A stretch of DNA of 35,413 bases from Candidatus Methylomirabilota bacterium. Lineage in GTDB: Bacteria; Methylomirabilota; Methylomirabilia; Rokubacteriales; CSP1-6. A program made the position numbers and the translations under genes. The stretch covers positions 1 through 35,413 of the forward strand of contig DATFUK010000259.1 in NCBI GenBank assembly GCA_035260865.1, in the 5' to 3' direction. Below are positions 14,074-35,047 of this stretch, one piece after another; the first letter of the stretch is position 1, and each line of letters begins with the position of its first letter. The notes below the pieces were generated by a model. It saw only the letters and a list, made by a program, of their open reading frames with translations. It was not told where the DNA came from and ran no database searches.

Positions 14074-15246
14074 ATGGCGCCGCGCGTCCGGACCGAGTGG
14101 GTGCTGCCGGCCTCGATGCTGCTCGGGACCTTCGCGTGGTCGTTCGTCTACGTGAGCCTGCCGTTCCACATCCAGAAGATGTCGACGCTGGACCCGGGGG
14201 CGACCCTGCGCTGGACCGGCTGGATCCTCGGCATCAGCCCACTGATCACCGTGATCACCGCGCCGATCTCCGGACGCATCGGCGAGCACATCGATCCCAA
14301 GCGCGGCTTCATCGCGGTGCAGGCCTTCCAGGGGCTGGGCTTCCTCGGGATGGCGCTCGCGCGCACGCTGCCCGAGATGCTCGTGGCCCGCGTGCTCCTG
14401 GGGCTGATGGGCGCGGTGTCCACGTTCGCGTTCATCATGGTGGGACGCTCCGGCGGCGACGTGCGGCGCCAGGTCTCCTACATCCAGTCGGGCATGACCC
14501 TGGGGCAGGTGCTGGGACCCGCGGTGGGGGCGGTGGTGGCGGCGCGGCTCGGGTTCCGGCTGTCCTTCATCCTGGGCGGCGTCATGCTGTGGGCCTGCTC
14601 GGCTCTCGTGGCCTGGGGCGTGCCGCCCGGCAAGCCGCGCGACGCCAAGGCCGCGGGCGACCGGCGCACGCCGCCGCGGGAGCTGATCACCGCGTGCCTG
14701 GTCGTGCTCACCGGCTCGACCCAGATCTTCTTCCTGGCCGCGATCCTCCCGCAGATCCTCCCGCGGCTGGGCGTGTCGGGGGACTCCACGCTCGAGGTCA
14801 GCGGCTTTCTCCTTCTGATCACCGGGCTGGCCGCCGCGCTCGGCGCGATGGCCGCCCCGCGCCTCGCCGAGGTCGTCGGCGACCGGCGCGCGTTGATCTG
14901 GTTCCTCCTGGGCTCCTCGGTGCTGGTAGCCGGGCTCGGGGTCGCGGGCAACGTGTGGAGCTTCGGGGCGCTGCGCTTCCTGCAGGTGCTGTGTATCGCG
15001 CCGATCTTTCCGCTCTCGGTGGCCGCGATCGCGCAGCGGGCGTCCGGGGAAGCCATCGGATTCGTCAACTCGGCGCGGATCGGGGCGGCCTTCATCGGGC
15101 CGGTCGTGGCGACGACGCTGCTGTCGTCGATGCCGCCCGCCGCCGTCTACCTGGTGCTGGCCGGCATGGGGCTGTCGGTGATCCCGCTCGTTGCGCGGCT
15201 CAATCGCCGCGCGCGGCCGTGGGACGAGGGAGGGGCGAGGGCGTGA
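14074..15246 (+). CDS. Major facilitator superfamily transporter
   Basis: ATG 14074 lies 2 nt after the permease stop. The 390 aa contain about 12 hydrophobic segments split by a charged central loop (PPGKPRDAKAAGDRRTPPRE). An MFS-like loop motif GRIGEHIDPKRG follows TM2. Confidence 0.8.
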   Translation: MAPRVRTEWVLPASMLLGTFAWSFVYVSLPFHIQKMSTLDPGATLRWTGWILGISPLITVITAPISGRIGEHIDPKRGFIAVQAFQGLGFLGMALARTLPEMLVARVLLGLMGAVSTFAFIMVGRSGGDVRRQVSYIQSGMTLGQVLGPAVGAVVAARLGFRLSFILGGVMLWACSALVAWGVPPGKPRDAKAAGDRRTPPRELITACLVVLTGSTQIFFLAAILPQILPRLGVSGDSTLEVSGFLLLITGLAAALGAMAAPRLAEVVGDRRALIWFLLGSSVLVAGLGVAGNVWSFGALRFLQVLCIAPIFPLSVAAIAQRASGEAIGFVNSARIGAAFIGPVVATTLLSSMPPAAVYLVLAGMGLSVIPLVARLNRRARPWDEGGARA

Positions 15247-16346
15247 GCCAGGATGAGCTGGTCCGGCTGTCGGAAGTGCGCATGGAGGGCGTGGGCAAGC
15301 GCTACGGCGACCACTGGGCGGTGCAGGACGTCTCGCTCTCGATCCGCCCCGGCGAGTTCTACACCCTGCTGGGACCGTCCGGATGCGGCAAGACGACGCT
15401 CCTCCGCCTGCTCGCGGGGTTCATCACCCCGGACACCGGCCGCATCGTCGTGGACGACGAGGCGATCGATCCGATCCCGCCGTGGAAGCGCAACCTCGGC
15501 ATGGTCTTCCAGCACTACGCGCTGTGGCCCCACCTCTCCGTGTTCGAGAATGTGGCCTTCGGGCTCCGCGAGCGCGGGGTCGGCGGCGAGGCCCTGACCG
15601 CGCGAGTGGCCGCCGCCCTCGGCCAGGTGGGGCTCGCCGGCTTCGAGACGCGCCGGCCGTCGCAGCTCTCGGGGGGCCAGCAGCAGCGGGTGGCGCTCGC
15701 CCGGACCCTGATCATCCAGCCCCGCCTGCTCCTGCTCGACGAGCCCCTCTCCAACCTGGACGCGGTGCTGCGGTCGCAGATGCGACTCGAGCTGGCGCGG
15801 CTGCACCGCGACGTGGGCATCACCACCATCTACGTCACCCACGACCAAGCGGAGGCGCTCGCGCTGTCCACGCGCATCGCGGTGCTGAGCCAGGGGCGGA
15901 TCGTCCAGGAGGGTAGGCCGGAGGAGATCTACTGGCGGCCCCGCAACCGGTTCGTGGCCGAGTTCGTGGGCGCCGCCAACCTGGTGGCGGTGCGGGTGCT
16001 CGAGGTGCGCGAGCTGGGCGTGGTGGTGGACACCACCGGTGGCTCGCGCATTCCGGTGGCGTCGGGCGGCCACACGTGGGCGGTCGGAGACCGCGGTCTC
16101 CTCTGCCTCCGGCCGGAGGCGCTGCGCCTCGAGGAGGCCGAGCGCGCGGCGGGGGGCATCCGCGGCAAGGTGGCCGGGCACGTCTTCGAGGGGGCGCGCC
16201 AGCTCTACGACGTCACGATCCCGGGCGGCACCGTGCGGGTGGAGATGATCACCTCCGCGCAGCAGGGCAAGAGCTTCAAGCCCGGCGACGACGTCAAGAT
16301 CGAGATCTCTCCTGAAACCAGTGTGCTCCTCCCCGCGGAGGTGTGA
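15243..16346 (+). CDS. ABC transporter ATP-binding protein (PotA/FbpC/CysA-like with a C-terminal TOBE-like domain)
   Basis: GTG 15243 overlaps the MFS stop (GTGA). It has Walker A GPSGCGKTT, signature LSGGQQQRV, Walker B LLLLDEP and an H-loop in VTHDQ. About 120 aa form a C-terminal regulatory-type extension. Confidence 0.9.
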   Translation: MSQDELVRLSEVRMEGVGKRYGDHWAVQDVSLSIRPGEFYTLLGPSGCGKTTLLRLLAGFITPDTGRIVVDDEAIDPIPPWKRNLGMVFQHYALWPHLSVFENVAFGLRERGVGGEALTARVAAALGQVGLAGFETRRPSQLSGGQQQRVALARTLIIQPRLLLLDEPLSNLDAVLRSQMRLELARLHRDVGITTIYVTHDQAEALALSTRIAVLSQGRIVQEGRPEEIYWRPRNRFVAEFVGAANLVAVRVLEVRELGVVVDTTGGSRIPVASGGHTWAVGDRGLLCLRPEALRLEEAERAAGGIRGKVAGHVFEGARQLYDVTIPGGTVRVEMITSAQQGKSFKPGDDVKIEISPETSVLLPAEV

Positions 16347-16370
16347 TCTGGACGTTCTGGCGCTGCGACG

Positions 16371-16446
16371 GTTTACTTCTTCAGGCTCTATTCAATGCGG
16401 GGGCCCAGACATGGCCCCCGCACTCCCCCAGTCTGCGGACGACCGT
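16371..16446 (+). repeat. Intergenic repeat element, copy A, containing a 10-bp GC hairpin (16396-16422)
   Basis: The 50-nt core 16397-16446 matches the reverse complement of 34971-35020 at 46 of 50 positions by hand alignment. The hairpin is TGCGGGGGCC-CAGACAT-GGCCCCCGCA. The 5' flank (GTTTACT...GCTCT) is more loosely conserved. Confidence 0.8.
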
Positions 16447-16463
16447 TTCGGCGCACGAACAAG

Positions 16464-16472
16464 TGGTGTAAT
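16464..16472 (+). promoter_or_regulatory. Possible extended -10 element (TGgTGTAAT) upstream of the rhodanese gene
   Basis: Motif read directly from the sequence, 24 nt upstream of ATG 16496. No convincing -35 element was found. GGGGGA at 16483-16488 could serve as the ribosome-binding site. Confidence 0.2.
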
Positions 16473-16495
16473 CTTCGCCCCCGGGGGAAATCGTC

Positions 16496-16810
16496 ATGAC
16501 TGATATCAGTCCGCAGGATCTGAAGACTCGGATCGATCGGCGGGATCCGCTCGTGCTGCTGGACGTGCGCGAGGACTGGGAGACCGCGCTGTGCCGGCTC
16601 GAGAACGCGACCCACATTCCGATCGAGGAGATCGAGTTCCGCACCACCGAGCTCGATCCCGCCGACGAGATCGTGGTGTACTGCCACCACGGCGTGCGCA
16701 GCGCCGCGGTCGCCAACTTCCTCCGCCAGCAGGGGTTCAAGGCGGTGAACCTCGCGGGCGGTCTGGACTCCTGGGCGCGCGCGATCGACCCGAAGATGAA
16801 GCGGTACTAG
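16496..16810 (+). CDS. Single-domain rhodanese-like sulfurtransferase
   Basis: 104 aa with the active-site loop CHHGVRS and the LLDVRE and NLAGGLDSW motifs typical of rhodanese domains. Confidence 0.85.
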   Translation: MTDISPQDLKTRIDRRDPLVLLDVREDWETALCRLENATHIPIEEIEFRTTELDPADEIVVYCHHGVRSAAVANFLRQQGFKAVNLAGGLDSWARAIDPKMKRY

Positions 16811-16867
16811 CTTGGCGAGGTGAGCCGCAGGCGAGCCGAGCGAATACGAGAGAGAAGCAAGGGAGAT

Positions 16868-17644
16868 ATGGCCACCAACGGAGGATTCGTCCGCCTCGAC
16901 CGCGACGGTGGCGTCGCCTGGGTCACCCTCGACCGGCCGCCGCTGAACCTGATCGTGCCCGAGATGGTCGAGGGGATCCGCGCCACGTTCGACGCGCTCC
17001 GGCGCGACGCGACGGTGCGGGCCGCGGTCATCACCGGCGCGGGGCGCGCCGCCACCGGGGGCATGCAGCTCCAGGTCCTGCGCGAGCTCGACCCGGGCAC
17101 CGCCCGCGCGTTCATCGCGAGCCTCCACGAGGCGATCAACTTGGTGCACGAGGCGCCCTTCCCCACCGTGTGCATGATCAACGGGGCGTGCCTGGGGGCG
17201 GGCTTCGAGCTGGCGATGGCCTGCGACCTGCGCACCGCGGCCGCGGGCGCCCTGCTGGGCCTGCCCGAGATCCGGGTGGGCATTCCGTCGGTGATCGAGG
17301 CGGCGCTCCTGCCCGGCATGGTCGGGCCGGGGCGGGCCGCGGAAATCTTGCTGACCGGCGATCCGATCACCGCGGAGCAGGCGCTCGCGTGGGGGCTCGT
17401 GAACCGGGTCGCGCCGCCCGCCGGGCTGCGCGCGGTGACCGCGGAGCTGGTCGGGCGCATCGTCGAGTGCGCGCCCACCGCGGTGCGCCTGCAGAAGGAG
17501 CTGATCGTGCGCTGGCGCAACACCGATCAGCGGACCGCGGTCGAGTACGGGATCAACGCGTTCGGCCAGTCCTTCACCACCGGCGAGCCCCGCGAGGCCA
17601 TGGACGCGTACCTCGGCAAGCGCAAGCCCCGCTTCGCTTCGTGA
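16868..17644 (+). CDS. Enoyl-CoA hydratase/isomerase (crotonase) family protein
   Basis: ATG 16868 is preceded by AGGGAGA. The crotonase fold motifs are GAGFELAMACDLR and LGLPEIRVGIP, with both catalytic Glu positions present. The ORF-track start at 16820 is probably too far upstream. Confidence 0.85.
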   Translation: MATNGGFVRLDRDGGVAWVTLDRPPLNLIVPEMVEGIRATFDALRRDATVRAAVITGAGRAATGGMQLQVLRELDPGTARAFIASLHEAINLVHEAPFPTVCMINGACLGAGFELAMACDLRTAAAGALLGLPEIRVGIPSVIEAALLPGMVGPGRAAEILLTGDPITAEQALAWGLVNRVAPPAGLRAVTAELVGRIVECAPTAVRLQKELIVRWRNTDQRTAVEYGINAFGQSFTTGEPREAMDAYLGKRKPRFAS

Positions 17645-26042: not shown

Positions 26043-29000
26043 GTGCGCCGCTTCATCAGGACCTTCCTCGCCCCCTTCCTGCTGCTGGCGATCCCGCTGG
26101 GGATTCTGGCCGGGCTCGGATTCGTCGCCGCCCACCGCCAGCTCGTCCGGACCCGCGAAGCCGCGGTCGGCCGGACCGTGGACGCGGTGACCGCGCTCGT
26201 CGCCGACTACCAGGAGTCATTGCGTCGCGAGACGATCCTCCTGGCCAGCGATCCCGCGGTGGTCGAGGGAACCGCGAGAGGGGACTGGGCGATCCTGGCG
26301 CGCGGCGCCTCCCCGCGGGTGCTGGCCGTCACGCGCGACGGGCTGGCCGACTTCATCACGATCCGCGACGCGCGCGGCACGCCGCTGGTGCAGGTGCCGG
26401 CGAGCCCGCCCCCGAGCCTCCCCGGGACGCCGGCGGTCAGCGAGCCGGTCCTGACCCTTCGGCTGGCGGGCGGTCAGCCGTACTTCCTGGTCACGGCGCC
26501 GGTGCAGAGCCCGGCCGGACGGGAGCCGGCCGGCGGCCCCGGCACGGTGGTGGCGGGCCGGCGCCTCGAGGGGCTCGGCGCTCTGCTGGACCGGCTCCCC
26601 GCCCGCCCGGCGGTCGTGTTCGTCGCGGGGGACCGGGTGCTCGCGGCCAGCCGGAGCGACCTGCCGGCGAGCGGCTGGTCCCGCGCGGCCACCGTCGGCG
26701 CCACCGAGGTGGGGGGCGAGCCCTTCGCGGTTCGCCGCCTGGCGGATCCCGTGGTGACGTCGCCCGACGGCGGCCTCTGGGTGACGCTGCCGGTCCTGGA
26801 GTTCGTGCGGGCCGAGCGCCGGCTCCTGCTCGAGTTCTTCGCCCTGCTCGGAGCCGGCGCCGTGGTGCTGGCGGGCGTGGTGCTGGCATTCCTGCCGGTG
26901 GCCCGCCGTCGACCGCGGCCGCCGGCCGGATCGGCGCCGCCCCCGGACGGCGCCCGGGTAGCGCTCGAGCGGCGCAACCGCGAGCTGGAAGCGCTGAACG
27001 CGGTGTTCTCGACGATGAGCGGCGGCGGCGACCTCGCGGCCACCGCCAGCGAGACGCTCGAGGTCGTGCGCGGCCTCGCGCGCATGGACGTCGGTGCGAT
27101 CTTCCGGCTGGACCACGACGGCGGCCGGCTCGTCCTGGAAGGTCAGAGCGGTCTCGATCCCCGCTACCTCGATCGCTCGCGCACCCGCCCGGTCGAGGGC
27201 TCCCACATGGGCGACGCCGTGCGCAGCGGCCAGATCCTGGTCACCCACCTGGACGCCTCGCCGCCCTCGGAAGCCCAGATCCGGGAGATGGCGGCCGAGC
27301 GGGCCCACCGGACGCAGCTCGCGCTGCCGATCCCGGTCGAGAACCGGACCTGGGGCGTGATGGCGCTCGTGTCCAAGGAGGAGCGCGAGTTCGCGCCGGA
27401 GGAGCTGGCGGTCCTCTCGGGCGTGGCCCAGCAGGTGGGCCTGGCGGTCGAGCGGGCCCAGCTCCGCGACACCGCGGCGGCGCGTCTGAACCGGCTCGAA
27501 GCCCAGCGCACCATCGAGCGGCACATCTCCGAGCAGCTCGAGACCGAGGAGCTCCTCGTGGTCATCGCGCGCTCCGCCCAGCGGCTGATCGGGGGGACGT
27601 TCTCGGCGCTGTACCTGCTGGAAGGCGACACCCTGCATCCGCGGGCCTGGTCGGATGTCCCGGACTGGATCCGGGACGTTCGATTCGAGATCGGCACCGG
27701 CGTGGCGGGCAGCGCGCTGGCCGCGGGCCGGGGGGCGCTCGTCAACGACTATGCGAGCGCGCCCGGCGCGCTGGCCGAGTTCATCCCGTTCACGAGCCGG
27801 CTGCTGGCCGCGCCCCTCATGGCGGGCGACCGTCCGCTGGGCGTGATGACCGCGGGGCGCGGGCCCGGCGCGCCCGCGTTCACCGAGGACGATCTCTCCA
27901 TCCTGGCCGACTTCGCCACGCAGGCCGCGGTGGCGATCGAGCACGCCCGCCTCTTCGACGAGGCCACGCGCAACGCGGCCCAGTACCAGGCGCTCCTCGA
28001 GGTGAGCGGTGCGGTCAGCTCGACCCTCGACGTGGAGCGGGTCCTGGACCTGGTGCTGGATCGGTGCCGGGCGCTGCTGGGGGTGGCCGCGGTCGGCGTC
28101 ATGCGGGTGGACCGGGAAACCGGGGTGGTGGCCTTCGAGCGCGGACGCGGTCTGTCGCCCGGGTTCATCGCCTCGCTGCGCATGCGTCCGGGTGAGGGCA
28201 CCGTCGGCCGGGCGATCGAGCAGCGCGTGCCGGTGTGGAGCGAGGACGTGCTGAACGATCCGGTGCTGGCGATCGGCGCGGAGACGCGCGAGCTGATCCA
28301 GCGCGAGGGATACCGCGCGGTCCTCTCCGTGCCCCTGCTCACCAAGGGCGATTCGCAGGGGGCGGTCGCCGCGTACTGGTGGGAGCCGCACACGCCGTCG
28401 GCTGAAGAGATCTCGATCATGACCGCGCTCGCCGGACAGGCGGCCACCGCGCTCGACAACGCGCGCCTCTTCGCGCAGGAGCGTGACCGGAAGGCCTCGC
28501 TCTCGTCGCTGCTCGAGATCAACAAGAAGATCGGGGCGCTCGCGGCGCCCGAGAGCCTGCTGACCTCCATCGCGGAAGAGGCGGCGCGGCTGCTCGGCGT
28601 CGACAACGCGGGCTTCCGGCTGCTCGAGGGCGAGGACCTGGTGGTGGCGGGCCTCGCGGGCACCGCGGCCCAGAGCATGCTGCGCCAGCGGATCAAGGTG
28701 GGCGAGAGCCTGACCGGCAAGGTGCTCGCCACCGGTCAGGCGCTCATGTGCGAGCTCGCGTCGAGCGGCATGCTGCCCGAGCACCTGGCCGCGGATCAGC
28801 AGCTGGGCTACACGCACTACCTCGGGGTGCCGCTCCTGGTCGGCGAGCGGGCCATCGGGGTGCTGACCTTCCGTGGGCGCCGGGCCTTCACCGCGCGCGA
28901 GCAGGAGCTGGGGGAGTCCTTCGCGGGCCAGGCCGCCATCGCCATCGATCACGCGCGCCTCTATCGCGAGGCCTCCGAGCAGGCGGATCGGATGCGGGTG

Positions 29001-31163
29001 GTGGCCGAGATGGGGCGCGTGCTGGTGTCCACGCTCGACGAGGCCCGGGTGCTCGAGATCGTCGCGACCCAAGCCCACGAATCACTCGGGAAGCTCGACA
29101 TCGCCATCTGGCTGCAGGAGGAGACCGACGGGCCGCTGCATATGGTGGCCGGCCAGGGGCCGTTCTCCGGCGCGCTCACCGGGCGCGCCCAGCCGCTCAA
29201 CGCCCACGAGGGCGTGGTCGGCCGGGCCCTCGAGGAGCGCGCCCCGGTGTGGACGACCGACGTGCTGCACGATCCCCGGATCCAGCTCCGCCCCGAGTCG
29301 CGGCGCTGGAACGAGGAGATCGGCGCGCGCTCCATCCTCGCGGTGCCCCTCATCCGGGAGCACCTCCGGGGCGCCCTCGTCGTGTATCGGCCCGCCGGCC
29401 AGTCATTCCTCAGCCGCGAGATCGAGTACCTCTCGGCGTTCACGAACCAGGTCGCGGTCGCGCTGGAGAACGCCCGGCTCTACCAGACCCTCGACATCAG
29501 GGTGCGGGAGCTCTCCGTCCTCCACGAGCTGTCCCGCGCGGTCACCGGCCAGCTCGACCAGGCCGGGATCCTGGACACCCTGCATCAGCAGGTGCCTCGC
29601 GTCCTGGACGTCCGGCACATGTCGGCCGTGCTGCTGGACGAGGAGCACGATCGGCTGAACGTGGTGCTGCGCGTGCGGGACGGGCGCCGGTGCGACGAGG
29701 AGGAGCCCCACTCCTACTCCCTCGACCAGGCCGGCCTCACCACGATCGTGCTCAAGAGCGGCCGGCCGATCCGGAGCTCGGACTACCTCGCCGAGTGCCG
29801 GCGACACGGGGTGGCGCCGGTCGCGAACGCGATGGACATGCCGCACGTCCTCATCGTTCCGATGACCGCGGGTGACCGCGCGATCGGGCTGATACTGCTG
29901 CGCAGCCAGGACCGCGCGTTCACCGAGGCGGACGAGCGGCTGCTCGTCAACATCGCCCAGCTCGTCGCCCTCATGCTGCGGAGCGCCCGTCTCTACGAGG
30001 AGCGCACGCGGGCCCTCGGCGAGCTCGGCGCGGCCCAGGACCAGCTCGTGCGCACCGAGAAGCTGCGCGCCCTCGGCGAGATGGCCTCGGGGGTGGCCCA
30101 CGACTTCAACAATCTGCTCGCCTCCATCCTGGGCCGCTCCCAGCTTCTGCTCGAGCGCGTCCAGGACGTCAAGCTGCGCCAGTGGCTCAAGGTCATCGAG
30201 CGGGCGGCGCTGGACGGCGCCCGCACCGTGCGCCGACTGCAGGACTTCACCGGGATCCGGCGCGACCAGCCGGCGGTCGAGGTGGACCTCAACCAGGTCG
30301 TCCAGCAGGTCCTCGAGACCACCGAGTCGATCTGGCGGCAGGACCGCCGCCGGACCGGGGGCGAGATCCAGGTGGAGACCGATCTGGCCGAGGGGCTGCC
30401 GCCGGTGGCGGGCGACCCGGCCGAGCTGCGCGAGGCCTTCACCAATCTCGTGCTCAATGCGGTCGACGCGATGCCGAAGGGCGGGACGCTGACCCTGCGG
30501 ACCGAGATCACCGACGGGCAGGTGCAGGTCGAGGTGCGGGACACCGGGATGGGCATTCCCGAGCACATTCGCGAGAAGATCTTCGACCCGTTCTTCACCA
30601 CCAAGGGGCCGAAGGGGACCGGTCTCGGCCTCTCGATGGCCTATGGTATTCTCCAGCGCCACAACGGGCGGATCACGGTCGAGAGCGAAGAGGGCCATGG
30701 CACGATCTTCCGCCTGCTGTTCCCGGTGGCGGTCTCGGGCTCGGTGAGCGAATCGGCCCCGCCGGTCGCGGCCGTCGCCGCCGCGCTGGTCTCGCGGCAC
30801 TGCCTGGTCGTGGACGACGAGCAGGAGGTGGGCGAGGTGGTGGCGGACATCCTGACCACCGCCGGCCACACCGCGGTGACGGTGCAGAGCGGGCAGGAGG
30901 CGGTGGGCCGGATCGAGGCCGAACGGTTCGACGTGGTCTTCACGGACCTGGCGATGCCCGGCATGACGGGCTGGCAGGTGGCGCGCGCGGTCAAGGACCG
31001 GGCGCCGGGAGTGCCGGTGGTGATGATGAGCGGATTCGGGGTGGAGGTGGCGCCGGGGGATCTGTCCACGCGCGGCGTGGACCTGGTCCTGGCCAAGCCG
31101 CTCCAGATCCAGGACGTCCTGCGCGCGCTGACCGCGCTCCAGCCGGGGCTCGGCCGGTCGTGA
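26043..31163 (+). CDS. Hybrid sensor histidine kinase: TM, ~240-aa extracytoplasmic domain, TM, six tandem GAF domains, HisKA, HATPase_c, receiver
   Basis: TM helices lie at aa ~8-30 and ~262-285. Six ~140-150-aa units each end in a variant of A-x-A-[IL]-[ED]-[NH]-A-R-L-[FY]: [60 protein letters not shown]. The H-box is [10 protein letters not shown] (His codon 30099-30101). The N and G boxes are [17 protein letters not shown] and GTGLGLS. The receiver reads CLVVDDE...[10 protein letters not shown]...KP (Asp codon 30945-30947). Confidence 0.9.
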
Positions 31164-33966: not shown

Positions 33967-34953
33967 ATGCCCGGCGCGTACTGGAGCATGGTGGAGGACG
34001 ATCGGCAGGGCGCACCCAAGAAGGTGATGGCCGAGGTGCTGGGCGAAGCCTCGCGCCTGGCCGGCGCCGCGGGGGCGCAGGCCGAGGCGGTGTGGGTGAC
34101 CGACAAGGCCACGCCGGAGGGCTTGAAGCAGCTCGGGGAGTGGGGCGCCAGGCGCGTGTGGCTGTTCGAGAACGCGGCGTTCGCGCCGTACCGGGCTGAG
34201 GTCTGGACGCCGGTGGTGGCGGACCTGGTTGGCAAGGAGACGCCGCAGGCCATCTTCGCGCCAGTAACCACGCGGCAGCGCGAGTTCATGGCCCGGCTGG
34301 CCGCGCGCCTGGGCGCGGGGCTCGCCGCCGACTCCACCGTTCTGACCGCCGAGGGCGGCAAGCTGGTGGCGACCCGGCCGGTCTACGCGGGCAAGCTGCT
34401 CGCCAAGATGACGTGGGCCAAGACGCCGTGGATGGCGACGCTGCGGCCCAACGTGTTCCGCCCCGGCGACGGGGCGGGTGCCGCGGCGACGGTGGAGAAG
34501 CCCACCGCCAGCATCCCGACCGAGAGCATGAAGCTGGTCGAGCGCAAGCAGGAGGCGAACACCGGCCTGCCCGAGCTGACCGAGGCGGAGATCGTCGTCT
34601 CAGGCGGTCGTGGCCTCAAGGGTCCCGAGAACTTCGTCATCCTGGAAGAGCTCGCCAAGGTCATGGGCGCGGCGGTCGGCGCCTCCCGCGCCGCGGTGGA
34701 CGCGGGCTGGCGACCGCATCGCTTCCAGATCGGCCAGACCGGCCGCACGATCTCGCCCAAGCTCTACCTGGGCTTCGGCATCTCGGGGGCCATCCAGCAC
34801 CTGGCCGGCATGCGGACGTCGAAGGTGATCTGCGCGATCAACAAGGATCCGGAAGCTCCGATCTTCAAGATCGCGGACTACGGCATCGTCGGCGACCTCT
34901 TCGAGGTCGCCCCCCTGCTGACCAAGGAGTTCAAACAGCTCCTGGAGAAATAA
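33967..34953 (+). CDS. etfA: Electron transfer flavoprotein alpha subunit
   Basis: ATG 33967 is preceded by AAGGGGA. The FAD-binding C-terminal motifs are [48 protein letters not shown] and VICAINKD. Confidence 0.9.
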
Positions 34954-34970: not shown

Positions 34971-35047
34971 ACGGTTGTCCGCGGACTGGGGGAGTGCGGG
35001 GGCCATTTCTAGGCCCCCGCTTATGAAGAGCTTAAAAGGCAGTAAAC
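34971..35047 (-). repeat. Intergenic repeat element, copy B (inverted relative to copy A), hairpin 34996-35020
   Basis: The reverse complement aligns with 16371-16446. The hairpin is GCGGGGGCC-ATTTCTA-GGCCCCCGC, followed on the + strand by TTATGAAG. It starts 18 nt after the etfA stop and ends 14 nt before the next GTG start. Confidence 0.8.

Follow-up and report, generated by a model that had tools for sequence, protein, structure and literature searches.

A dispersed, insertion-polymorphic hairpin repeat of a Rokubacteria genus, probably a family of small non-autonomous mobile elements

The closest described counterparts of the element considered here, a G+C-rich hairpin repeat that stands in two inverted copies in a 35,413-nucleotide stretch of Rokubacteria (Methylomirabilota) DNA, are the REP sequences (repetitive extragenic palindromes) and bacterial interspersed mosaic elements (BIME) of Proteobacteria, with their REP-associated tyrosine transposases (RAYT) (Nunvar 2010, PMC2817692; Bertels & Rainey 2011, PMC3116915; Di Nocera 2013, PMC3733652). 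Both the Proteobacteria elements and the Rokubacteria repeat are short, G+C-rich palindromes in tens to hundreds of copies, which are lineage-specific and mostly extragenic, favour co-directional and convergent spacers and avoid divergent ones; both are set in mosaics of short motifs and occasionally lie inside genes, in host genomes with just one RAYT-class gene, which is inherited vertically. Three other systems share further traits with the repeat: (i) transposable elements of the miniature inverted-repeat type (MITEs), such as Correia/NEMIS of Neisseria, ERIC/RU of enterobacteria and Nezha of cyanobacteria, are likewise ~75-150 nt long and polymorphic in presence or absence among relatives, may fold into a long hairpin (as can copy 1 in the present stretch), insert near gene ends and are possibly co-transcribed or even translated; (ii) Rickettsia palindromic elements (RPE) are palindromic repeats found in frame inside genes, where they add a peptide at a tolerant place (here the MutL linker, the central loop of a major facilitator superfamily (MFS) protein and an ABC-F linker); (iii) in the palindrome-associated transposable elements (PATE) derived from IS200/IS605, the hairpin is the conserved feature, most copies are without terminal inverted repeats, a short sequence at the left junction is constant (compare CCGT/TTAC, common in the Rokubacteria repeat) and the genome encodes a Y1 HUH enzyme.

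The stretch analysed (hereafter the window) is contig C259 of a metagenome-assembled genome (MAG; G000) that comprises 4.88 Mb in 709 contigs, with 70.8% G+C and 86% completeness. Rokubacteria, which have large genomes, are abundant in soil and uncultured. In one genus of these bacteria and in a few sister genera, the repeat is dispersed and insertion-polymorphic, with ~40-60 copies in each genome; sites are gained and lost on the time scale of species divergence, and copies are tolerated in spacers and in protein linkers. The two window copies probably belong to a lineage-specific family of mobile repeats that are small, non-coding and non-autonomous, with a likeness to both REP/BIME sequences and MITEs.

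A preliminary description, made from the letters of the window alone, had reported an inverted pair with 46 of 50 identities, and this pair is real: positions 16397-16446 (+) and 34971-35020 (-) form 50-nt arms that are 92% complementary, the best inverted pair of the window (runners-up, 70-81%), and the 35-nt core at ≤3 mismatches has exactly two window matches, compared with 0.00 expected from 100 dinucleotide shuffles. A looser extension over about 27 nt was borne out as well, 34971-35047 (-) aligning to the 76-nt query at 84% identity (BLAST). As had been noted, the 9-nt arms GCGGGGGCC/GGCCCCCGC are the same in copy 1 and copy 2, and two of the four differences between the copies fall in the loop (CAGACAT vs TAGAAAT); the other two lie in the TCTGCGGACGACCGT tail. 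The search for further copies that the description proposed gave 40 BLAST matches in G000, and an iterated nhmmer search converged on 36 copies, so that the genome holds at least that number.

All 20 congeners examined carry the repeat, a first look giving between 18 and 63 candidates per genome. In sister genera, 23 matches were found in g4, three in g5 and one weak match in g3, and the other families of the order gave two weak matches only. With one genome per genus, 6 of the 31 genera of the family contain the repeat (g1, g4, g5, g26, g29 and g36). Exact searches of the GTDB (one genome per species) with the core pattern returned at least 113 stretches, and most of the matches listed are titled Candidatus Rokubacteria, Rokuibacteriota, Methylomirabilota or Methylomirabilia. 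The same pattern has 0 matches in the viral contigs of IMG/VR and there is, thus, no sign of a phage vehicle. A literature search pairing Rokubacteria with REP elements found no paper, and the ten best matches to a looser query, in which MITEs and intergenic repeats were also named, comprised only general papers on repeats.

Some MAG records that bear the repeat are titled differently, namely Nitrosotalea, Acidoferrum, Deferrimicrobiaceae, Verrucomicrobiia, Dormiibacterota, Limnocylindria and Eisenbacteria (L044, L047, L051, L068, L069, L073, L115, L118 and L120). Since the repeat-bearing contigs in question have 68-74% G+C, it is probably the record names or bins that are wrong, rather than the repeat.

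Orthologous sites show the element both present and absent, and with the copy numbers given above they bear out the REP/MITE-like dispersed repeat that had been one of three readings proposed initially. At the site of copy 1, 12 of 20 congeners are empty, six are filled in the same orientation, one is filled in reverse (G016) and one (G001) holds only a 13-nt remnant of the end motif. The empty form reads 'tga CATGCTATCTTCGCCCC...atg' or 'tga CATGCTATCTTCGCCCCGGGAGA..atg', with a spacer of 30-45 nt; additions to this site are a half copy in G012 and a second copy, of subfamily B, in G014. The site of copy 2 is filled in 13 of 19 congeners, always in the same orientation, and empty in six, with spacers of 2-22 nt. 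Because the empty forms include G013 and G005, both from the window's closest clade, the element at this site looks old and later cleanly lost. Its core is almost unchanged in 14 species, while loop and flanks vary.

At 25 further sites of G000 that were compared with the five nearest congeners, a similar picture emerged, at least 10 being empty in one or more of these genomes. The C15 site is empty ('cAGTATA/GAGTACt') in G015, G012 and G013, and is occupied in G000 by a 92-nt insert with ACGG(T/C)TGTCCGC at both ends and no target duplication, or TA at most. Two sites show a graded series: at C393, G012 and G013 have no copy, G015 and G020 have one and G000 has two, head-to-tail; at C170:10838, G012 and G013 have none, G020 has one and G000 has two, and each unit is bounded by a ~27-nt duplication of host sequence. 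C170:6331 is empty in G015 and G020, and its filled form is flanked by an imperfect ~9-nt duplication (GCATTTGAA / GCAT--GAAG). At C183, C192 and C423, empty spacers of 7-8 nt or similarly short in G015 and/or G013 correspond to inserts of 110-150 nt in G000, and a single, degenerate end motif persists at the 'empty' C37 site of both G012 and G015. Gap arithmetic had also suggested that C609 is empty in relatives; the alignment showed this site to be filled, and it was dropped. Occupants of opposite orientation at the same site were found at the copy 1 site (G016), at C185 (G014), at C79 (G020) and in mutL; the reversed occupant of C185 looks like an independent insertion, as its boundaries differ between orientations.

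The conserved part of the family comprises CTCT-N5-7-AT, followed by GCGGGGGCC-N7-GGCCCCCGC and by ACTCCCCCA. Most commonly it is embedded in a 73-nt unit that starts with TTACTTCTTCAAGCTCT and ends with GCGGAC-NN-CCGT, an end motif that is usually repeated just upstream of the unit, resulting in direct-repeat ends. When the copies of G000 are stacked, the commonest form reads, in order, (GCGGAC-NN-CCGT), TTACTTCTTCAAGCTCT, five to seven variable bases ending in AT, GCGGGGGCC-CAGAAAT-GGCCCCCGC, ACTCCCCCAG and TCC-GCGGAC-AA-CCGT-T(CCGGCGC). Over 165 copies from this and other genomes, stem and ACTCCCCCA tail are near full information and the flanks far less conserved; 104 copies have the loop CAGAAAT and 38 have CAGACAT. 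An exact core pattern served to retrieve the copies from other genomes, whose cores are, hence, invariant by construction; the 36 copies of G000, found by profile search, give the same picture of conservation. Several modules may precede the core: TTACTTCTTCAAGCTCT in the majority (module A), a second hairpin GGGGCGG..CCGCCCC (GGGGCGG..GGATCCGCCCCTCT) in subfamily B only (module B), 'ccaccggaagcttCTCT' in the mutL copies, and 'gggcaacccgctcttCT'. On the 3' side, the core is followed by the GCGGAC..CCGTTCCGGCGC motif in some copies and by another module in others. The element is a mosaic of interchangeable flanks round an invariant ~45-nt core. Head-to-tail tandems are common, and their units share one end motif GCGGAC-NN-CCGT. 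Where the stem of a diverged copy varies, the change leaves bases unpaired or makes a G-T pair and is never compensatory; covariation, thus, neither supports nor rejects an RNA structure. In G020, at the C37 site (L249), the intact stem arms of one copy enclose ~45 nt of different sequence instead of the 7-nt loop, beside a normal second copy.

The features of the two window copies are listed in Table 1. Copy 1 is flanked by the gene for an ABC ATPase with a TOBE domain (15243-16346, TGA 16344-16346) and by a rhodanese gene (ATG 16496), with pelG, an ABC permease gene and an MFS gene upstream; copy 2 is flanked by etfA (33967-34953) and the acyl-CoA dehydrogenase gene acd (GTG 35061). The flanking genes of both copies are all on the + strand, and the gene coordinates agree with the description in this respect. 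Its placement of copy 1 behind the pel-ABC genes also holds, with PelG and ABC genes upstream, but the insert is longer than the 76 nt that had been marked. The whole 149-nt spacer of copy 1 folds at -63.5 kcal/mol (z = -2.8 vs shuffles), whereas in the spacer of copy 2 the hairpin is the sole structure in the centroid fold of the - strand (-23.3 kcal/mol).

Table 1. Features of the two repeat copies in the window (positions on C259)
Feature	Position	Strand	Basis or remark
Whole inserted segment of copy 1, ~119 nt	16347..16465	+	From the base after the ABC-ATPase stop to just before GTGTAATCTTCG; absent from the spacers of 12 congeners
Repeat unit of copy 1, 73-75 nt: TTACTTCTTCAGGCTCT-ATTCAAT, hairpin, ACTCCCCCAG, TCTGCGGACGACCGT	16373..16446	+	nhmmer profile match 16373-16447; aligns with 35 other copies
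Left end GGCGCTGCGACGGT, an inverted (not direct) match to the right end	16359..16372	+	Pairs with 16441-16454 in the fold
Perfect 9-7-9 hairpin GCGGGGGCC-CAGACAT-GGCCCCCGC	16397..16421	both strands read alike	Pair alignment and fold
Nearly invariant tail ACTCCCCCAG	16422..16431	+	Stem-level information content in 165 copies, most fetched by a pattern containing the tail; near-constant also in the 36 profile-found own-genome copies
Right end motif GCGGACGACCGTTTCGGCGC	16435..16454	+	On the 3' side of most copies; extra or solo copies near elements and at emptied sites
Unit of copy 2, antisense to etfA and acd; hairpin 34996-35020	34971..35047	-	BLAST, profile match

Spacers between co-directional genes are the predominant location of the repeat. 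In G000, 28 copies lie in such spacers (19 antisense, 9 sense), one in a convergent and one in a divergent spacer and six at contig edges; divergent spacers make up 34% of all spacer bases in this genome. For 113 loci in other genomes, 86 are co-directional (49 antisense, 37 sense), 13 convergent and three divergent, and 35 more overlap crude gene calls. No strict rule of orientation with respect to the flanking genes was seen, the totals being 68 antisense and 46 same-sense copies. About 29 of the 36 copies of G000 do not overlap a called gene, six of these 29 being at contig ends; as genes were called with an in-house program based on codon bias, single cases need care. Several copies are positioned <300 nt from contig ends.

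Copies inside genes are in frame at several places: in G000, they lie in the central loop of an MFS protein (C185:3452-3523), in the linker of an ABC-F protein (C129:2701-2770) and in an ArnT-like membrane protein (C635:1343-1404), and at C340:942-1003 and C546:8358-8414 the element supplies the C-terminal residues and the stop codon of two genes. The copy in mutL (C372:2132-2189, locus L274; orthologues L275-L293) occupies the linker between two MutL domains. Its core is present in 19 of 20 genomes compared, the exception being G005 (G006, which gave no mutL match, is not among the 20), and its segment is in frame in 18 of 20; the frame is broken in G008 and G013, both assemblies of 30-40 contigs that are probably derived from long reads, in which an error in a G/C run is possible. 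Fourteen genomes (13 congeners and G000) have the forward orientation, read as ..GSFSIESGGPEMAPALPQSAD.. / ..GGPEMAPALPQSAD.., and five (G015, G013, G010, G017 and G011) the reversed one, read as ..ADWGSAGAMSGPPH..; in G005, a 54-nt in-frame deletion has taken away most of the copy and only remains are seen. Reversed copies have a scattered distribution in the genus, recurrent inversion in place is plausible at this site, and an 8-nt inverted repeat (GCGTCAGG...CCTGACGC) bounds the cassette of G014. The peptide MAPALPQSAD, a tiny open reading frame that the repeat produces in the window and that had been taken as spurious, is really translated in the mutL linker.

These locations, and the filled and empty sites, bear on the functions that had been proposed for the hairpin. 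In favour of a bidirectional intrinsic terminator that ends the pel-ABC and other transcripts, a stop codon is followed at 50 nt by a perfect G+C stem of 9 bp, whose symmetric arms let it form on both strands. Such a role is very improbable: no T-run follows the stem on either strand, and a terminator scan of 16000-16900 gave 0 sites; copies are situated inside tight operon spacers, like copy 2 between etfA and acd (2-22 nt when empty), and in frame within mutL, where they are read through in 19 of 20 genomes, and within other genes. Just upstream of the element at C393, there is a canonical hairpin-plus-T-run terminator; the genome, thus, does use ordinary terminators. Nor can copy 1 be a conserved end signal of the pel-ABC transcript, being absent from 12 of 20 congeners and reduced to the 13-nt remnant in a thirteenth.

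The initial suggestion that the palindrome is a 9-N7-9 operator for a dimeric regulator, with the neighbouring genes as regulon, fares no better. Although a perfect palindrome with a 7-nt centre does stand upstream of two metabolic genes in the window, dozens of copies are found in unrelated spacers and inside coding regions: at least 36 sites adjoin functionally unrelated genes, many of them downstream of or inside genes, and presence varies among close species. In addition, the conserved asymmetric tail ACTCCCCCA and the CTCT-N-AT head would not be expected for a symmetric operator, and we regard this reading as extremely improbable. Almost certainly, the repeat is not a family of small RNA genes or of cis-regulatory RNAs such as attenuators either. 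The better-than-shuffled fold of the copy 1 spacer would be in line with such a role, but Rfam has 0 matches at gathering thresholds (with E-value filters, the best are a snoRNA with 19.5 bits and Yfr1 with 17.6 bits, for gathering scores of 51 and 38), a promoter consensus scan round copy 1 revealed no promoter-like site, and both orientations occur relative to flanking genes. Moreover, the stems are without compensatory changes, and the rhodanese leader is empty in 12 congeners, with a remnant only in the thirteenth.

The ends of the element place it outside the described classes. Among 80 copies of the main type, ~44 have the full GCGGAC-NN-CCGT (the direct-repeat form GCGGACnnCCGT) straight before TTAC; of the remaining left ends, eight are of the CCGT type with no full motif, eight are inverted (ACGGT) and the rest differ, so that the CCGT/TTAC junction is common and not universal. 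The inserted DNA is, thus, usually motif-unit-motif, which explains the solo motifs that are left after loss. Inverted ends are exemplified by copy 1, in which GGCGCTGCGACGGT is paired with ACCGTTTCGGCGC, and by the C183 composite, with inverted ends matching at 12 of 14 positions. A genome-wide search with the end motif alone (GCGGAC-N3-5-CGT[TC]) gave 198 matches, 172 of them far from elements; the motif is too common in DNA of 71% G+C and was rejected as a marker.

With no consistent terminal inverted repeats and no fixed-length target duplication, the family is unlike a standard MITE of a DDE transposon; also unlike MITEs, its copies mostly have terminal direct repeats. Differences from the REP/BIME system are as clear. 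The GTAG/CGTC tag of REP sequences (Di Nocera 2013, PMC3733652) is missing, the stem being flanked by ...AT and ACTCCCCCA or, on the reverse strand, preceded by GGGGGAGT; the unit is longer (~45-nt core, 73-nt unit) and asymmetric; in contrast to the doublets of REPINs, units are mostly single or head-to-tail, with a partial inverted second copy within ~100 nt at only 2 of 34 sites (C183 and C399); the RAYT-class gene is not flanked by the repeat; and the copy number is modest (~40-60). From RPE, the family differs in that its copies are mostly intergenic, of unrelated sequence and translated in both orientations at the same place in mutL; from PATE, in that the main subfamily has one hairpin and a duplicated 12-nt end motif, and that at least two sites show apparent target duplications (~9 and ~27 nt), and no full-length element bearing tnpA or tnpB was seen. 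The repeat is, hence, filed here as a novel variant among small dispersed repeats, outside both the REP/RAYT and the MITE families, as it has no GTAG/CGTC tag, REPIN doublets, RAYT flanking, consistent inverted ends or fixed target duplication.

For a mobile repeat without coding capacity, the invariant hairpin and tail would presumably serve as the handle for an enzyme acting in trans. The likeliest candidate may be a hairpin-recognizing HUH/Y1 single-strand DNA transposase, for example the product of the single-copy RAYT-class gene of G000 (C482:359-1258 (-), L031), the one Y1_Tnp gene in this genome. It encodes 299 aa with HYHLL and YIVLNP motifs and a C-terminal helix-turn-helix, scores 88 bits against NCBIfam NF047646 (REP-associated tyrosine transposase; cut-off 80) and is wedged between typA-like and VOC/glyoxalase-like genes, with spacers of 33 and 89 nt. 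The RAYT/IS200-type transposase that the preliminary description proposed to look for, thus, exists in the genome, but it adjoins no copy. Of the 20 congeners, 12 have a homologue, at a single locus in each, with 62-79% identity except for a 49-residue fragment in G013, and three of these homologues contain internal stops (G008, G009 and G010). Across the 31 genera, four have both a Y1 gene and the repeat, two the repeat only, three a Y1 gene only and 22 neither (hypergeometric p ~0.014, uncorrected for relatedness). Comparison of the RAYT-class protein with PDB sequences gave no match at E≤0.01 and, hence, no sequence tie to the solved E. coli RAYT. Only two RAYT groups are REP-associated (Bertels et al. 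2017, PMC5581495), so membership of the RAYT class does not by itself settle the link, and the gene is no more than a lead to the mobilizer of the repeat. Among the Y1 genes, the one transposase family screened, none was seen to belong to a parent insertion sequence that shares the ends of the repeat. Loss of the element could proceed via recombination or slippage between its terminal direct repeats. In RNA, the repeat would form a passive, stable hairpin (~-23 kcal/mol) in transcripts of either strand, because its arms have the same sequence on both; it could slow 3' exonucleases and would not end transcription.

Several observations weigh against a mobile, non-autonomous repeat. Its ends are heterogeneous, mostly direct repeats and in a minority inverted, and the apparent target duplications are ~2, 9 or 27 nt or indeterminable, so that no standard transposition chemistry fits. 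Eight of 20 congeners have many copies and no detectable RAYT homologue, in addition to the three with stops and the one with a fragment; furthermore, a profile search at E≤10 detected no copy of the repeat up to ~1.5 kb from the genes at 30 Y1/RAYT loci (23 RAYT loci and 7 further Y1 loci of the family), and no enzyme is tied to the element. Finally, old copies are far better conserved than neutral sites: in the 14 forward mutL orthologues, hairpin and tail are 97.5% identical on average, compared with 72% at codon position 3 and 96% at position 2 of the N-terminal domain and 58-69% in the neighbouring linker, a contrast that would not be expected of decaying, purely selfish DNA in the absence of gene conversion or selection. 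Gene conversion among copies or selection could account for this strong conservation.

The mutL values also favour a structural element that is selected by the host, be it a protector of mRNA 3' ends, a partial terminator or a site for nucleoid- or topoisomerase-type proteins, with mobility being secondary or ancient; similar host roles have been proposed for REP/BIME of E. coli. The near-constant core at the copy 2 site in 14 species, the 100% identity of the core over 34-37 nt in a genome of another genus (G052), the avoidance of divergent (promoter-only) spacers and the stability of the hairpin in both orientations point in the same direction. However, in close relatives the element is cleanly missing from the same sites and nothing replaces it, and no individual copy is, hence, needed; there is no U-tract, and copies lie inside genes and tight operons; diverged stems show unpaired and never compensatory changes; and gene conversion among ~50 copies could equally give the conservation. 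Taken as a whole, host selection for structure appears unlikely as the primary explanation. Some chance, albeit a low one, is left for the core being a maintained invertible cassette, either as a recombination module with flipping or re-entry in place or as a DNA or RNA structure selected by the host, subject to selection or strong gene conversion: the contrast of 97.5% with 72% identity, the two orientations in mutL, the 8-nt inverted bounds and the three other sites with opposite-orientation occupants may all be read in this manner.

Beside the mobile repeat considered here, which we take to be the probable nature of the window copies, a second, unrelated dispersed hairpin repeat was noticed in G000, (CCCCTCACCCTG)CCCTCTCCCC-N2-6-GGGGAGAGGG(CAGGGTGAGGGG). 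It has 50 perfect-core copies in both orientations (e.g. C79:1300, C15:13612, C56:7272 and 7671, C97:1307 and 1346, C330:6337 and 6371) and sometimes adjoins the first family (C79; G012 at the C170:6331 site). Within the window, a 5.1-kb gene (26043-31163) contains diverged internal repeats at 27399-29484, in stretches of 40-95 nt that are 63-81% identical and spaced ~490-1010 nt, which points to a run of repeated domains in a protein of ~1700 residues.

In Rokubacteria genomes, the family accounts for many odd hairpins, 'leaders' and tiny open reading frames, MAPALPQSAD among them, that are prone to over-interpretation, and with copies near contig ends it may add to the fragmentation of these MAGs. 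It also provides a sharp sequence marker of the lineage, which flags probably mis-titled MAG records. A repeat that fails the defining tests of both REP/RAYT and MITE families, and that combines direct ends, in-frame copies inside genes and an unusually well conserved core, could help to show how such elements move and why they persist.

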